A DNA stretch of 12,852 nucleotides from Azolla caroliniana (Eukaryota > Plantae > Polypodiophyta), in the NCBI GenBank assembly GCA_043228905.1, contig JBHGNT010001024.1:1-12852 (forward strand), given 5' to 3'. The position numbers and the translations under genes were made by a program. Positions 1,045 through 12,852 of this stretch are shown here, in pieces. The notes under the pieces are model-generated. The model had not been told where the DNA came from, did not search any database, and saw only the letters and a program-made list of their open reading frames with translations. Numbering within the stretch: the stretch's first letter is position 1; every line of letters starts with the position of its first letter.

Positions 1045-1165
1045 TGTTACCTTGTACGAGATGTACGGAGAGTCAAGTGTGATGATCGAGGGTCGAATGT
1101 TATCATGATGTTGTTGTGTATGTGTAGGAGGCATAAATGTAATTGTGAGTCTATACGTATGTGAA

Positions 1166-1191
1166 CACATGCACACACGTGTGTGCATGTG
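1166..1191. promoter_or_regulatory. Perfect 26-bp palindrome in LTR U3: G-box flanked by two RY motifs (copy at 4256-4281)
   Basis: CACATGCACACACGTGTGTGCATGTG equals its own reverse complement and contains CATGCA, CACGTG and TGCATG. Confidence 0.6.
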
Positions 1192-1274
1192 GATGGATAC
1201 GAGGAGGTGTGAGTGAGTGTCCAGTATGAATGCTCAATGGGGCTTACACCCTATGTATCTACCCCCTCTTGTAC

Positions 1275-1281
1275 TATTTAA
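1275..1281 (+). promoter_or_regulatory. TATA-like box of LTR A (copy at 4365-4371)
   Basis: CTATTTAA in mid-LTR, followed by a pyrimidine-rich leader-like tract. The same octamer occurs in LTR B. Confidence 0.6.
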
Positions 1282-1562
1282 CCCCTTATGGGGAATGAAT
1301 GAAACATGAATGAACATTTCTCTCTAATCTCTCTCTCTTTGACACCTTTTCTCTTCTCTCCCCCTCTCTCACGTTGAACCCCCTTGGGAGGGGGGTGGAG
1401 CCATTCTAGGCACCACCCCCCACCCCGCAATGCTTCTCTATATGATCTCTCTCCACCATCATACTCTTCATCATCTTTGCTATTTCACCATGTCTATCTT
1501 CGTCATCGTTAACCATCATCATCCTTAACCCTAACCCTAACTCTAAAACCTACAACACCTTT

Positions 1563-1573
1563 TGGCGACCACA
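1563..1573 (+). other. Primer-binding site of element A, probably tRNA-Arg(UCG)
   Basis: TGGCGACCACA lies 5 nt after the LTR end and is complementary to ...UGUGGUCG-CCA, the 3' end I recall for plant tRNA-Arg(UCG). Not database-checked. Confidence 0.75.
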
Positions 1574-3006
1574 ACGACGGACCCCCTTTGATGAAGAAGT
1601 CCAAGAAGAGAACGTGGCAGCATGATGTGCGAGAAATGACAGAAACATGCAAATGACGGCGACGATGTTCAATGTATGTGCAAGCGAAGAAATGGAAACG
1701 ATGACGTTTGTGTACGAGTGCAAGAAATGATGATGCGATGGAGGAATGCATGAATGGCAACAATGGTTGTGCGAGGTTGCGATTAGTGTCAATGTGCGGG
1801 TTTCCGATGCGGTTAGCGACAATGTGCGTGTTTTTGAAAGCGTGGTGCAAGATGCACGGCTGTACAAACTGCGATGCAGTGGGAACCGGTGCCAGCACGA
1901 CCGGAACGAAGAAGCCCACCAGGAGACTGCGGAGAAAGTCGCAGTGTGTGGTGCGAAGACCGGCAGGATGTGCTGAGAATGCACGAGAGGTGGTTCTAAA
2001 AGAAGCAACACAGAGAGAGTCGGAACCGGAATCGGAACCAGAACCGGAGCCGGTTAACACTGAAGGGTCGAAGAAGACCCAGACATTGACCAACAAAGAA
2101 ACCAACAACGCAGACCAGACATCTACGACCAAAGAAACCAACAACGCCAGAAAGAGACGATCGGATGCACCAGACAAAGACAGACAAAGACGACGAAAAG
2201 AGACTACTCAAACAGACAGAAAGAATGGAACAACGAAGGAGAAACACGACTAGAACAAATGCTAAGAACCAGTACAACAAAAACAGGACCACATGTGCCC
2301 TCTAGGTCATCGTCATCAACTGGGAAAGCAGAAAAAAAAAACAACTGCGACCGGAGCGGCAACCGACCAAAATGGCTAGATATGGGAGCAGCCGGACAAC
2401 ATTCAAACTGACTACCGGAAAACCGGCCGGAACAGACCAGAAGACGACGGACGGTGCCGGACTACGACAAACCAACAGAGGAACGAAGGCCGGATGGCCA
2501 CCGTATGGGAGCGGTTGAAGCACGGCGGAAGAGCGACCGGTATGGCGGCCAGAATGCGGGACAAATGGCCGAACGACGACGACGCTATACGGCAGAGGCC
2601 GGACAGCGGCGGCGAATGGCAACCCGAAACCCTACACAACAGTCAAAGAGTGGCCGAAGAGTAGCGGCCAGATTGTGTGCAGAGCGGGCAAGCGACGGAC
2701 GAGGTTGGACTATGACGAACCGGCAGAGACGACAACAGAAACGGAAACAGGGCTGGATGGAAAGGCGCCGGACAAGACCGAACAACTCGAGTGAAGGACG
2801 AATGGCGACAGAAACGACCGGAAAGCCAACGACCGAACGGAGAACGGTGATGAAGACGGAAGATGACGGGACGGTTGCAGAGATGGAGAGACAACCAGAG
2901 TGGTAACGGTCGGCACAGTGACAAAGCAATGACCAGAACGGACCGGACAACCGGACAAACGACAAAAACGACCGGAAAGACGAAGGGACGACCGAACATG
3001 CCAAAT

Positions 3007-3103
3007 GGACGAAGCGGCCGAACAACGATAGTTGGAGACAGGGACGACCGACCACAACAGTGAGGGAGACAGGGACGAAGCGGCCGAACAACGATAGTTG
3101 GAG
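3007..3103 (+). repeat. 31-bp direct repeat in the interior of A
   Basis: GGACGAAGCGGCCGAACAACGATAGTTGGAG at 3007-3037 and 3073-3103. Confidence 0.85.
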
Positions 3104-3720
3104 CAGTGCCCCGATTGCGGCCGAACAGTGGCGGCCAACAAACGAACATACAATCGACAATGATGAAAGAGAAGAAGAAGATGAAGAAGAGAAGAAGGAA
3201 GGGAAGGAAAAGAAGAAGCACAAGAGGTGTTGGCGGCCAGACAACCGATGGTCGTAAAGAATAGAGACAGCTGGACAGAGATGGCAGACCATAGAATGGC
3301 CGGACAGGGCCGACAGAGACGGCAATGACGCCAAACGATGGCAGAACAGGAACGGAAAGCGGCGGCTGGACAGCCACGTCCGAGCATCGGAGGACACTGA
3401 TGGCAACGGCGATGGACCCAGAGACGGAAACAGAAAAAAAAAAAAACAGAGACCGAGACGGAGATGAACAGAGAAGGCCGTACAAACACACAACGACACA
3501 CAAAAGCAGAGCGTGACAGCCACGGACAATGGACATAGAATAGCGGTGGTGAAAGAAGGAAGAAAAACGAGAAGAGAGGATGAAGATAAAAAGAAGAGAA
3601 AGATGAAACAGAATCAGAAAAGAAGAAGAAGAAACAGACAACGATAAGAGAGAGAAAACGCAGAAAACAAGAATAAGAAGAAACAAGAGAGGAAGAAGAA
3701 AAAGCAAGAAAGAAAACACA

Positions 3721-3842
3721 AAAAGAGAGGGGGGGGGCATGTAACAAATATTGAAACCCTGAGGGTACTGAATGAAATTGTCAAAATTCGAGGGTATGTA
3801 ATAAAAATTTTAAAACTTGAGGGCACCGACGAAATTGTAAAA
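3721..3842 (+). repeat. Degenerate ~29-bp repeat (4 units, alternating a-b-a-b)
   Basis: GAGGG cores at 3727, 3761, 3790 and 3819, each preceded by an A run. Units 1 and 3 continue YATGTAAYAAA; units 2 and 4 end GAAATTGT. Confidence 0.6.
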
Positions 3843-4091
3843 ACTCATCCACCTAGAGAAATGGATGTGATCAACAACGACAACTCACACAAAATTAAAG
3901 GAAGATACACATACACACAACATTTTTGGACCCATGACGAAGTTCGTAAGTCGACAGAACGAGAATGTTCGTGTCGCGGAAGATTTGCTGACCAACAAAG
4001 ATGGTCGAGTCAAGCACTCCGATCGAGGGAGTCAATCGTTGAAAGGACCGATGGAAGTTTTGGTCGAAGAAATATCATCATCAAGGCATGT

Positions 4092-4129
4092 GGGATCGAC
4101 GTGCAAGGCACTTTCCCACGGGCGTGCCA
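4092..4129 (+). other. tRNA-Arg 3'-end-like motif (PBS on the - strand) at the expected PPT position of element A
   Basis: GGGATCGACGTGCAAGGCACTTTCCCACGGGCGTGCCA ends 5 nt before the 3' LTR and is 34/38 identical to the reverse complement of 8901-8938. Confidence 0.8.
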
Positions 4130-4134
4130 TATTG

Positions 4135-4647
4135 TGTTACCTTGTATGAGATGTACGGAGAGTCAAGTGTGATGATCGAGGGTCGAATGTTATCATGATG
4201 TTGTTGTGTATGTGTAGGAGGCATAAATGTAATTGTGAGTCTATACGTATGTGAACACATGCACACACGTGTGTGCATGTGGATGGATACGAGGAGGTGT
4301 GAGTGAGTGTCCAGTATGAATGCTCAATGGGGCTTACACCCTATGTATCTACCCCCTCTTGTACTATTTAACCCCTTATGGGGAATGAATGAAACATGAA
4401 TGAACATTTCTCTCTAATCTCTCTCTCTTTGACACCTTTTCTCTTCTCTCCCCCTCTCTCACGTTGAACCCCCTTGGGAGGGGGGTGGAGCCATTCTAGG
4501 CACCACCCCCCACCCCGCAATGCTTCTCTATATGATCTCTCTCCACCATCATACTCTTCATCATCTTTGCTATTTCACCATGTCTATCTTCGTCATCGTT
4601 AACCATCATCATCGTTAACCCTAACCCTAACTCTAAAACCTACAACA
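4135..4647 (+). repeat. 3' LTR of element A
   Basis: Matches 1045-1557 except C1057/T4147 and C1524/G4614 (by-eye comparison). Confidence 0.95.
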
Positions 4648-4781
4648 ATAAATAACGAAAGCTTCATTTGAGATCGAACTATGTCTACGCTTCAATCATA
4701 TCTTCTGTCATACTCTTTGTGTTGTTTGTTGTGCACATTCACCAACAGGTCCTCACTTGCTTCTGTGCATTCATTCCATCA
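4648..4781 (+). repeat. 3' remnant (134 bp) of the copia 5' LTR
   Basis: Ends ...TTCCATCA, 2 nt before the PBS. The left end abuts the LTR of A. Confidence 0.75.
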
Positions 4782-8474: not shown

Positions 8475-8479
8475 GCCGT
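8475..8479 (+). other. Target-site duplication GCCGT; second copy is ACGGC at 1040-1044 (GCCGT on -)
   Basis: Joining 8479(+) to 1039(-) with one GCCGT copy restores CAT TGG GAG GCC GTC AAA CAC ATT TTC AAG TAC = HWEAVKHIFKY in frame. Confidence 0.9.
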
Positions 8480-8898
8480 TGTTATTCGCTAGCCGGACAA
8501 GGCCTAACACAAGGTGTCACGGAGACACTTCACCAAAGGGTGATTACGGCATAGAATTAAGATTCAACGATTACAACGACTTACGTAGGTTACACGATTA
8601 GATTGCTTTGGTTAATTACACGCGTAAGATACAGCAGTAAGTACAGAACGGAAATCAAGACAGAAGTACAAACATCATAAGCTCTATTAATTATCCGCTG
8701 CGATTACAATGGGGTCCGGGCCTTTAAATAGGTTTCCGGCCCGTAGTACAAAACGGTGCCTATCGCACCTATTCGGGATCCGTCCGGATCTGGAACGGCA
8801 TACCGTTTCCAGTCCGTCCGTCCACACTATGCTCATTTACAACCATATTTAATTAATTCCTTCACTCCGTATTTTGGACTCCTTGCCGGCCGGTAACA
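8480..8898 (-). repeat. 3' LTR of element B (419 bp)
   Basis: On - it reads TGTTACCGG...GCGAATAACA (TGTTA/TAACA terminal inverted repeat). TATTTAA on - at 8724-8730. It interrupts the copia RT exactly at 8479/8480. The partner LTR is not in the window. Confidence 0.85.
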
Positions 8899-8900
8899 CA

Positions 8901-8938
8901 TGGCACGCCCGTGGGACAGTACCTTGTACGTCGAACCC
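8901..8938 (-). other. tRNA-Arg 3'-end-like motif (antisense PBS) at the expected PPT position of element B
   Basis: Element sense reads GGGTTCGACGTACAAGGTACTGTCCCACGGGCGTGCCA-TG-LTR. On + it reads as a PBS, TGGCACGCCCGTGGGAC. Confidence 0.8.
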
Positions 8939-8950
8939 TTCTTGGCCCCT

Positions 8951-11886
8951 TCATTGTTTACCCAAATTGTCCAAATTACTTTGTTCCAGAATTTCCACTT
9001 GTTCTTCCGGTTGTGGTTGCTGCGGCTGTGCTTGCTGCTGCTGCTGTGGTTGCGGTCGGGACTGAGGCTGCTCCGGCTGCTCTGCTTGCTGCTGCTGCTC
9101 CGTTTGTTTCTCTGACTCCGGCTGCTCCGTTTGTCTCTCTGACTCCGGCATCTCCGTTTGACTGCTTCCGGTCCGGTCTCCTTCCAGTAACGGTTCCTCA
9201 TCACTAAGGTTGACCGTAACCGGTTCCCGTGATTTCTCTTCCCGGATCCGGGACCTCTCATAGCTTTCAAACTGGATCTGCGCCTCCAGCCTATCGTCGT
9301 CCAGCTGAGCTACAAGTTGCCGGACTTGCTCTAGTTGGTCCTCCGCCAAGGCTTGAAAGTCTTCGGCCAGCTCATCTCTTATGCCGGTGAAGTCTTCGGA
9401 ATTCAGCATATAGCAATCATCTCCCTCCTTCCGCCGGTTCTCAACGTCGGCCCGGAGCAATTGGAGTTCCGCCGCGTTCGTGGCCCACTTGGTCCACCAT
9501 TTGACGGACCCGTTGTCAATCAAGCTCTTGGTCTGGTTCAACCAGGCCCGCATGATATCCTGGATGCGACTTGCTCCCATTTGTGCTCTGCTTTCCACCA
9601 CTTGTCGCTCCTCCTTCAACTGCTTGATGAGATTTGCCGTATCCTCCGCCTACTCTCTGTAGCACGTCAGCTGCCCTTGATATGTCGTTTGCAGCCTCTG
9701 CAGTACCTCCGCCGCTCTTTCTTTTTCCGCCTGCTGTTGCCTGAGGAGCTCTGTCCGAACCTTCTCCGCCTCTTCCAACCGTCTTCTGGTTTCCGCTTGT
9801 TCCTTGGCGAATGCGATTGCGGTCTGATCAACTGCTTGCCGGAGCTCATCCGTCCGTTGTGCTCCGTTTGCAACCGTTTATACTCTCGGTGCAATTGCTC
9901 AAATTCCTCTGTTTTTTGTTTGAGCTTGCCGTTGATCTGGCGATGGTTCCGGTCTTCCCGGTCCTTTACCTGCCGGAGTTCCTCTTTCAGGCGCTCTACT
10001 TCTGTTTCGGCGTTCCTTCGGAGCCTGTCCTTCTCTTGCAGCATTTTCTCCTTCTCCTCCTTGAGCCGGTCGTACGCTTGGTGGCCTTTCCGTAAGCTCT
10101 CCTCGGCCCGGCGTAGGTTCTCAGCAGTCTTTTTGAGTTCTGCCTCCGCTGCCGTCTTCAATTCTCTTTCGCGGCTCCTCAGCGCTTCTTGGGCAGCTAG
10201 CTCATCCTTTAAATCCGCAAGCTCTTGGGCTTGTGCCGCATTTCTCTCCGGAACGGTTTCCGTTGCCAGGGTCTGATTGCTATGTACAGGTTGATCTGCC
10301 GCTTTATTCTGTACATTGCCCGGAGTCACCGGTGCTTGGACTTGTGTTGTCAAAGCCAATTGAGCCATTTCCCTTGTGACCTTGTCCAAGTCTTGTTCAA
10401 GGCTCCGGATTCTGGACCGGGCCGTCTCTAGATCTACGGTTGTGACGAGCAACCGTTCGTTGTGCGCTCTCTCCTCCGCCTCTATGTACTCGACCGCTCC
10501 GGCGATCTGCTCGCCTACCCACCGTAGCCACATGCTACTGGTGCCTTGCTGCTGTACTGGTCCTACTCCTTGGCCGCCGTGTGTGCTGGCTGGGCTCGCC
10601 GGCTGTTGAGTTCCGGTTCTCGCCGTCTCTGGAGCCGTTGGAATGACTTCTTCTATAGAAGCCGTCGAGGCCGGTTCCATACGCACCGGTTCTGGTTCCT
10701 CCCTTGTGGTTTGCTCAGGTTGAGTTGGGGGCGTTTCTTCCTCTTGCGGGCACGAACGCTCCCCCGCTGTCCCGGCGGTCCTACTTCTTGACCGTCGTTG
10801 GAGGTGCTCTTCTGGCTCCTCCGTTTCCTCTTCCTGGGTAACGGCCTGTTTCTGTGCCGTCAAGGGTTCCGGTTCCTTCTGTCCCGGTCGCCGTATGGTT
10901 ATCTTAACGGGTCGGACCGGTGACACCTCCTCCAGTTCTGAGAGCCGTTTCTTCCCTTTCGTCACCTTCGACGCCAGCAGCTGCTGTCGTTTGGACGCCG
11001 GCTTCGAGGTGCTTCCTTCCGATACTCTTGGCCGCTTCTTTGGCTGGACGGTCTCGACCGGCGGCACGAGCAATGTTATCCACTGAGCTACGGCGTGCCA
11101 CAGCTTCCGGCCCTCCTTGCCGTCCTTTCCTCGTACCATGTCGATTGCCGTGCACAAACCGTCTGCAATCAACACCGGCCAGTCCACCTTGATCCCTTCA
11201 TAGGTGGCTATGATCATCCCTGCCCGATTTTTTGGCATGACAGGGGGTCGGGGGTACACGTGGCCGTACTCATGGAGCACTCGAGCTATCTCCCTGAATA
11301 GCGGATCTTCGCCGCCCTGCGTCCGATAGCCTTTGCCGGCAACAGAGTACTCACCGAAATATCGGATGAGTTGCTCCGAGGTTGGGTTATCGATCTGGAA
11401 GATACCTCCCTCCGGAAGGCCTGTTAGCGCACGGATCGCTTCCTCGGTGATGACCTCTGTGGCGAGCTCCTTGATGACTCGGTCGGCTTCTCTGTGCGGC
11501 GGTGCCTCCATGATGGCCAAGAACCCCTCCAGTCTGTGTTGCCTGAACCATTTCCTGGCCGCTTCCGACAGCGTTTGTGGTTCCATGTCTGCCTCGAGGT
11601 CGAGGGAAGATGGCGAGGTAGAGTGGTGATGAGAGTGAGAGCGAGAGAGAGAGCGTTCCGGACGTGGGGGTTCTCTGCGTGCAGGTTCGCGTTTGCTCAG
11701 CTTCCACTGCCTTGGTGCTTTTGTGCTTCTTGGCTCGCGAAATGAAAAGGTCTCCATGCGTTCTGCTTCTTCTTTGTGCGTTTTGGCGCCTTTTTCGAGC
11801 ATGCACACGTCGTGTACCAATTTAGTATTAAGTAGCGTGGCGGCTCTTAAATGCCCACTTCGTACCTTTTCGCTCCTTGCTTTCAC
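8951..11886 (-). pseudogene. Extra 3' ORF of element B (~950-980 codons when repaired): plant-transposon-protein-like domain, disordered linker, long coiled coil, Q/P/E-rich tail
   Basis: ORFs 9667-11886 and 8951-9619 join through one frameshift near 9860 (other frame reads QRTDELRQAVDQTAIAFAKEQAETRRRLEE...) and one TAG at 9650-9652. Motifs ITEEAIRALTGLPEGG and GIKVDWPVLI. Confidence 0.75.
9098..9160. repeat. 27-bp tandem repeat (2.3 copies) next to CAG-rich low-complexity sequence in the ORF tail
   Basis: CTCCGTTTGTYTCTCTGACTCCGGC at 9098 and 9125, partial at 9152; encodes PESE(R/K)QTEQ. Confidence 0.8.
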
Positions 11887-11972
11887 GTCCGTTCACACCT
11901 CGATTTTTAATGATTTCTTTCTTTTTCTTTTTCTTTTTTTATTTTTTTTTATTTAAATGACGGTATGTGACC

Positions 11973-12852
11973 TTACACATCCGTAGGTCCCTTCGGACCC
12001 TTACCGTTTTCCTTACGGGTTGCCGTGTCTTCTTTCACCTCTGCTACGGGTTCCCCGTTGTCTTTTTCTTCCATCCGTACCGTTCCCGGTATAGTGCCGG
12101 TGATCTGCATAAACGGGTTCTTTGGCATCGGTCCTTTATAGGGCTTTAGTCTAAATCCGTTCATCCACTTGCCTAGTACTTCACCGGCAAGTGTCCCTAT
12201 CTAATAGGACCCGTTGTATTCCCGTGTCAGCCAATACGGGCCTGTCCATCTGAACCGGAGTTTACCCGGCATCTTGCCCATCCTTGTTTGGAATACTAGA
12301 ACCGGTTTTCCGATTTCGAACATCTTTTCGTTACCTTTCCGGTGACGGTCAACGAACGCTTTCCGTCGTCGTTGCTCCAGTTCCATGTGTAGGATGCTGG
12401 CCAGCCGTTGCTCCTCCAGTTCGCATAGTGCTGCTAGCCGCATTTCTTCCGACTTCTTTTCATTCAGCCGTTCCCGTAGTTGGATCCGTAAGCTTGGTAC
12501 CTGAAATTCCACCGGCATGACCGCTTCTAAGCCGAATGCTAACCGGAACGGCGTTGTCCGGATACTTGTTTTGTATGCCGTTCGGTACGCCCATAGCGCG
12601 CTATGGAGCTTTGTATCCCAGTCCGTCCGGTTTTCATTGACGATTTTGCGGAGAATGTTCTGCAGCGTTTTGTTGGTGGACTCTGCTAACCCGTTCGCTT
12701 GTGGGTAGTACGGTGTGCTCCGTTTATGGACCATGGCATAGAACGTTGTTAAGCTTTCCACTACCTGGCCGAGGAAGTGCCCTCCTTGGTCGCTGATTAA
12801 TTCAATCGGACATCCATATCGGCACCAAATGTTCTCGTACAGGAATTTTGCT
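11973..12852 (-). pseudogene. pol: Gypsy pol C-terminus: integrase core and GPY/F module, one premature stop
   Basis: RYGCPIELISDQGGHF...STPYYPQANGLAESTNK...LWAYRTAYKTSIRTTPFRLAFG...KLRFRWTGPY...SY*IGTLAGEVLGKWMNGFRLKPY. The TAG at 12201-12203 is in frame with ORF 11973-12164. Confidence 0.92.

Follow-up and report, generated by a model that had tools for sequence, protein, structure and literature searches.

The stretch analyzed here, referred to throughout as the window, comprises 12,852 nucleotides (nt) of Azolla caroliniana DNA (contig JBHGNT010001024.1 of assembly GCA_043228905.1). It contains two retrotransposons with long terminal repeats (LTRs), a non-coding element A and a coding element B, and both sit within a decayed Copia element recognizable from its gag, integrase and reverse transcriptase (RT) matches. 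Element A spans positions 1045 to 4647 on the plus strand, and its LTRs, each 513 nt long and running from TGTTAC to CAACA, differ at only 2 positions (99.61% identity). Plant substitution rates lie between 0.7 and 1.3 × 10−8 per site per year, which would make the insertion about 0.15 to 0.3 million years old, with the reservation that the host's own rate may differ. This report concerns a 40-nt block that element A carries next to its 3′ LTR, at the place of the polypurine tract (PPT), and that corresponds to the end of a tRNA-Arg(UCU).

Priming signals and orientation of element A

The motif TGGCGACCACA lies at 1563–1573, 5 nt inward of the LTR1 edge. On the minus strand, reading inward from LTR2, CAATA (4134–4130) is followed by TGGCACGCCCGTGGGA (4129–4114). 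In the window, the 10-nt core TGGCGACCAC occurs once, a count reached by 3 of 200 shuffles, and TGGCACGCCCG occurs twice (4119–4129 on the minus strand and 8901–8911 on the plus strand), a count reached by none of 200; by these counts both motifs exceed chance. The first-pass annotation had described element A as a complete single element with two inward-facing primer binding sites (PBSs) for different tRNA-Arg isoacceptors, each exactly 5 nt from its LTR, and with no LTR-adjacent PPT. Our analyses confirmed the inward-facing motifs between near-identical LTRs and also the missing PPT. Specifically, no PPT adjoins either LTR in either orientation: a scan for purine runs of at least 11 nt found none on the plus strand within 397 nt of LTR2 and none on the minus strand in the whole interior of the element. 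Segments of this interior are common to loci L013, L016, L023 and L071 of the collection described below. Its six long frames have no Pfam match, and tblastn with the clade polyproteins found no match in it.

Which of the two motifs is the PBS depends on the direction of transcription. The integrase sequence of element B fixes the sense strand of the clade and, among the matches listed, coding sequence upstream of the block (pol and extra frames 3′ of it) is in sense at 34 of 34 loci. Downstream of the block, gag stands in sense behind an LTR and PBS at 5 loci, as it also does in L042, and L003 has a single antisense match, of 29% identity. TATA-like motifs show the same bias, with 38 in sense and 4 in antisense among the 49 LTR stretches listed. 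Together, the coding sense and the TATA-like bias indicate that element A reads on the plus strand and that the LTR1 motif is its PBS. The LTR2 motif thus occupies the PPT place, running in the sense of a tRNA, and the layout is, as had been argued, not a simple orientation error.

A split tRNA-Arg(UCU) sequence at the PPT position

The second motif, TGGCACGCCCGTGGGA, is the terminal part of the 40-nt block at 4090–4129. A related contig, L002, carries a 76-nt tRNA-Arg(TCT) with a CCA end, identified by ARAGORN, and comparison of the block with the last 28 nt of this tRNA gave 25 identities, 2 mismatches and one missing C. An insert of 13 nt falls between tRNA nt 58 and 59 (standard tRNA numbering). 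The earlier UCU call is thereby supported. The description of this site as a second PBS, in turn, has to be given up: judged from sequence, it does not act as a PBS in genomic RNA, where it has the sense of the tRNA itself; pairing with the tRNA could occur only on minus-strand DNA. Relaxed, intron-mode ARAGORN calls were spurious and were disregarded, and a search of 3900–4300 against Rfam, with E values up to 10, returned only weak unrelated matches.

Both parts of the tRNA sequence, and the hairpin between them, are conserved. Among the matches listed, the T-arm 10-mer, which lies outside our search pattern, agrees with the tRNA at a mean of 8.5 of 10 positions in 93 distinct contexts, compared to 3.6 of 10 at a control offset. 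The hairpin stem is paired in 320 of 364 cells over 91 distinct contexts, versus 14–26% when slid, and is fully paired in 69 of these 91 contexts by means of 7 different stems. In the set of 42 distinct inserts the paired cells number 125 of 168; shuffling gave a mean of 93.7, and none of 10,000 shuffles reached the observed count. The hairpin covaries across relatives. A pattern-independent check on contigs of four DNA runs from three studies found no variants at or above 2% at 4114–4131 or 4101–4110, with variation at nearby positions, and unrelated flanks join the block at 4089 and 4130. Cofolding of the tRNA end with the antisense block, using RNA parameters as a proxy, predicted a three-way junction with an energy near −50 kcal/mol.

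Table 1. Positions of elements A and B and of their priming signals and target sites in the window
Feature	Positions	Strand	Remarks
GCCGT adjoining LTR1 of A	1040–1044	−	ACGGC on plus strand; partner of 8475–8479
5′ LTR of A	1045–1557	+	513 nt; TATA-like CTATTTAA at 1274
Spacer CCTTT	1558–1562	+	5 nt, LTR1 to primer site
Primer binding site TGGCGACCAC(A)	1563–1573	+	conserved core 10 nt, 1563–1572
Interior of A	1574–4089	+	non-coding, purine-skewed
Purine run	3720–3737	+	18 nt; 397 nt upstream of LTR2; without counterpart in many coding relatives
Block at PPT position	4090–4129	+	40 nt, ends in CCA; tRNA-Arg(UCU) nt 49–76, split by hairpin
Block, first tRNA part	4090–4099	+	tRNA-Arg(UCU) nt 49–58
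Block, hairpin insert	4100–4112	+	13 nt, stem GTGC/GCAC
Block, second tRNA part	4113–4129	+	tRNA-Arg(UCU) nt 59–76 minus one C, ending CCA
Spacer TATTG	4130–4134	+	5 nt, block to LTR2
3′ LTR of A	4135–4647	+	513 nt
ATAAA, right flank of A	4648–4652	+	inside Copia host LTR; partner outside window
GCCGT adjoining LTR of B	8475–8479	+	inside Copia pol
3′ LTR of B	8480–8898	−	coding element; CTATTTAA on minus strand at 8724
Block in B	8901–8938	−	2 nt from 3′ LTR; stem GTAC/GTAC
Integrase of B, C-terminal part	12201–12851	−	fixes clade sense strand

The relatives were collected by scanning metagenome contigs for the 16-nt core followed by TGT. This yielded at least 121 loci, of which six (L007, L039, L054, L055, L079 and L110) were judged to match by chance and removed, leaving at least 115; the block is common to element B and to 115 of the 121 loci listed. 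In 107 of the 118 matches listed, its end is separated from a following TGTT[AG] by 2, 4, 5 or 8 nt, an adjacency that is partly built into the search pattern. In 596 Gb of prokaryote genomes, the core plus TGTT matched twice, which we took as the chance level, and a viral collection contained no relative of the integrase and no occurrence of the motif.

Of 22 rows spanning block, LTR and PBS, 21 were used; L050, in which the second site is an inverted block, was left out. Among the 21 rows listed, the PBS is of the TGGCGAC type in 10 and of the TGGCAC type, which corresponds to the same tRNA as the block, in 11. The block is fixed while the 5′ PBS alternates between two tRNA ends. The idea of two different isoacceptors applies to the family of element A but does not extend to the rows with a UCU-type PBS. 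The spacing of 5 nt on both sides, likewise a trait of that family only, is seen in just 3 of the 21 rows: the block-side and PBS-side spacers are 2/2 in six rows, 2/5 in five, 2/7 in four, 5/5 in three, 4/2 in two and 2/6 in one. The two spacers are equally long in only 9 of 21 rows, which led us to reject symmetry as a general feature. The pair L023/L047, considered as a clean PBS swap, is identical over 337 nt and then diverges; it may be an assembly chimera and was not used.

The primer for TGGCGACCAC we presume to be tRNA-Arg(UCG). Our search for a cognate tRNA gave no matches besides phage tRNAs of mixed identity, whose matching 3′ ends belong to Arg(TCT), Asp, Trp, Ala and Glu. The same motif in human is labelled R or W in the available text of PMC4724089. 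The tRNA in L002 (1190–1265) is complete with CCA and antisense, and its first base adjoins the element interior, the 5′ LTR lying off the contig; it is likely a minus-strand primer that was copied through its full length.

In most of the relatives listed, a C lies directly beyond the terminal CA at either end of the LTR (1558 and 4134 in the window). The block-side spacer ends in TG, GG, AG or CG in 99 of 107 matches listed and the PBS spacer begins with C in 20 of 21, and this C is possibly an integrase processing signal.

Several loci have unusual arrangements. L050 (1975–2640, oriented) contains two facing blocks, separated by about 550 nt and each with its own kind of LTR start, representing either head-to-head elements or an assembly join. 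In L011, L064 and L042, block-LTR-PBS units recur at periods of 2.3–2.5 kb, as LTR-sharing tandem arrays or collapsed assemblies, and in L042 the block directly follows a gag fragment. L053 carries tRNA-Lys genes (TTT and CTT, at 1062–1137 and 2756–2828) near a clade LTR.

Priming of the plus strand

We favor, as the probable reading of these sequences, that in the clade of the young, non-coding Ty3/gypsy element A the PPT has been replaced by a split tRNA-Arg(UCU) site, at which a host tRNA would prime the plus strand. Element A RNA would be made from the 5′ LTR on the plus strand, and a tRNA at the 10-nt PBS would prime minus-strand DNA. Once RNase H had cleared the RNA over the block, the last 17–18 nt of tRNA-Arg(UCU) and its T arm could pair with the freed minus-strand DNA to the left and right of the hairpin, which would itself be looped out. 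The hairpin would be placed just 3′ of tRNA nt 58, which is 1-methyladenosine in most tRNAs. Starting at CCA, RT would then synthesize DNA across the spacer and on into U3, and the 2–8 extra nt would be removed before joining, like the 2–7 nt spacers at the PBS end. The enzymes would likely be borrowed from B-like elements.

Several observations weigh against this reading. RNA annealed to DNA is a substrate of RNase H, and the tRNA primer would thus need protection. In all copies seen, the block lacks one C of the tRNA, an omission not expected if perfect pairing were favored. Hairpin energies, calculated for sense and antisense as RNA and as DNA, prefer no strand, and the T stem can fold within the sense RNA alone (GTGGG/CCCAC around the hairpin). 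Non-coding families resembling that of element A repeatedly carry a purine run 350–460 nt upstream, and the tRNA fossil in L002 concerns the minus strand only. As to the material, nearly all loci come from one assembly series, short-read contigs may join families through a common LTR, only block-like contigs enter the conservation check at 4101–4131, and the shuffle tests are inflated by the relatedness of the sequences.

Some of these points would be accommodated if the element's own RNA over the block were the plus-strand primer, the block being a captured tRNA end whose structure lets it resist RNase H and which serves, without a second tRNA, as a PPT of non-purine sequence. Its position and sense are right for a PPT substitute, the GTGGG/CCCAC pairing is available in the sense RNA, and the missing C carries no cost. 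We nevertheless consider this, the chief alternative, unlikely: it leaves unexplained why the T-loop letters and CCA stay matched to the host tRNA across divergent families (8.5 of 10, with an invariant core), and the spacer to U3 varies from 2 to 8 nt, as at tRNA-primed ends. The recurring purine run raises the question of whether the plus strand begins there instead, with the block serving in end processing, packaging or another role. The run in element A (3720–3737) ends with a G stretch followed by CATGT and is a possible internal plus-strand origin. However, LTR1 begins exactly at TGTTAC against the target site, so that the limit of U3 is set right beside the block, and at least 12 loci have no purine run of at least 11 nt in the available upstream sequence, making an internal start quite improbable.

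We give still less credence to pairing between the block and the element's own PBS, by which the RNA would be circularized or the minus strand self-primed. In the 11 of 21 rows listed with a UCU-type PBS, that PBS is complementary to the last 10 nt of the block (with one mismatch in one row), but in element A and the other 10 rows the PBS shares only TGGC while the block is unchanged. That the PBS switches next to a constant block speaks against such pairing. Least credible of all is transcription of the element on the minus strand with the LTR2 motif as the true PBS, through an orientation error or inversion. The LTR2 motif is indeed the longer tRNA match; the sense orientation of pol, the extra frames, gag and the TATA-like motifs described above speaks against this, and the opposite orientation would be without a PPT as well.

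For retroviruses and LTR retrotransposons alike, initiation of the plus strand at a PPT is regarded as a general rule. If tRNA priming from the block is correct, it would constitute a new variant of Ty3/gypsy priming, in an abundant natural clade of recent mobility that does without a PPT. It would imply that RT is able to elongate a tRNA along a DNA template while sparing it from RNase H, and would provide a small, testable substrate for how RT distinguishes a primer from RNA destined for degradation. Such elements would be missed, or placed in the wrong orientation, by annotation tools that require a PPT or settle on the best PBS.

Clade placement and element B

The nearest full polyprotein to element B is P0123, with 86% identity over the integrase piece. 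It contains gag, RT, RNase H and integrase in the Ty3 order, aligns with Ty3 Gag-Pol with an E value of 1e-90 with the RT and RNase H catalytic residues present, and has no match to an extra RNase H or a chromodomain. The RT-RNase H-integrase order was found in P0123 and P0126, element A itself encoding nothing, and Pfam recognized only the RT-linked RNase H in P0123, P0126 and P0133. The nearest named integrases, at about 50% identity, are from the fern Adiantum and the liverwort Riccia. Of the Ty3/gypsy hallmarks, element A has direct LTRs with TG...CA ends and a PBS behind the 5′ LTR (followed by gag in relatives) and lacks the PPT adjoining the 3′ LTR. LARD- and TRIM-type elements are non-autonomous LTR elements that keep their LTRs and priming signals without coding capacity. 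Element A resembles them in both respects, differs in carrying a tRNA block in place of the PPT and, at 3.6 kb, presumably falls between their usual size classes.

In the available portion of PMC6317226, a PPT adjoins the 3′ LTR in most Ty3/gypsy elements, the three primer types listed all concern the PBS, and replacement of the PPT is not mentioned. By the same portion, the clade resembles plant non-chromovirus Ty3/gypsy elements (Athila, Tat, Phygy and Selgy) in its gag-RT-RNase H-integrase order, extra frames 3′ of pol, lack of a chromodomain match and 5-bp target sites, and it shares a tRNA-Arg PBS with Ogre, TatIII and Retand. It differs from Tat (Ogre, Retand and TatI–III) in having no extra RNase H match, and from Athila in that its PBS is not of the Asp, Asn or Ala type, one clade PBS matching the L002 tRNA-Arg(TCT) and the other presumably being of Arg type too. 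Phygy (PBS Trp, 4-bp target site) and Selgy (4-bp target site) are also unlike it, the PBS here being neither Trp nor Ala and the target duplication 5 bp (GCCGT). For Ty3, PMC5371799 describes plus-strand priming from the PPT, a split PBS that, as in Ty1, also contacts the T arm, and a genomic PBS that does not arise by copying of the tRNA, which would allow imperfect sites to persist in this clade too. Like Ty3, the clade places a tRNA at the PBS behind the 5′ LTR; unlike Ty3, its PPT place holds a tRNA-sense block, able to pair with a tRNA only on minus-strand DNA. Among titles and abstract openings, subscription papers lying outside the search, we found no description of a tRNA site replacing the PPT, and a term search of PMC3185511 gave no matches.

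The block and the TGTTACC start of the LTR are the sole strong homology between elements A and B, their LTRs having no homology past that start. The flanks of element A, ACGGC and ATAAA, do not match each other, and the left one pairs with the flank of element B as a 5-bp duplication. The description of element A as a complete single element needs this qualification, that it has no target duplication of its own. Copia pol is interrupted at GCCGT with consecutive reading frames on both sides, and the segment between A and B is inverted. The swapped duplications fit best with a crossed co-integration of two cDNAs, given that the LTRs of A and B are not homologous, and we lean slightly toward this explanation, which predicts TTTAT after the far LTR of element B. 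Simple recombination between A and B was rejected, as with non-homologous LTRs it does not produce the swapped duplication; recombination with an unseen A-type LTR and misassembly remain as alternatives. For the combined picture, in which a whole plant Ty3/gypsy clade would lack PPT priming, both strands would be primed by host tRNAs (with a three-way junction at nt 58) and A and B would have been co-inserted crosswise by one integrase pool, inverting the intervening DNA, we put the chances at even.

Between its integrase and 3′ LTR (8951–11892, minus strand), element B has two extra sense frames with no Pfam match, conserved at 26–69% in about 30 related loci. At 3940–4042, contigs of other copies carry a local repeat of about 100 nt that the copy in the window lacks. 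Each LTR of element A contains a perfect 26-nt palindrome (1166–1191 in LTR1), a G-rich/C-rich inverted repeat that is kept in related LTRs (1386–1425) and, near its 3′ end, CCCTAA telomere-like repeats (1527–1550).
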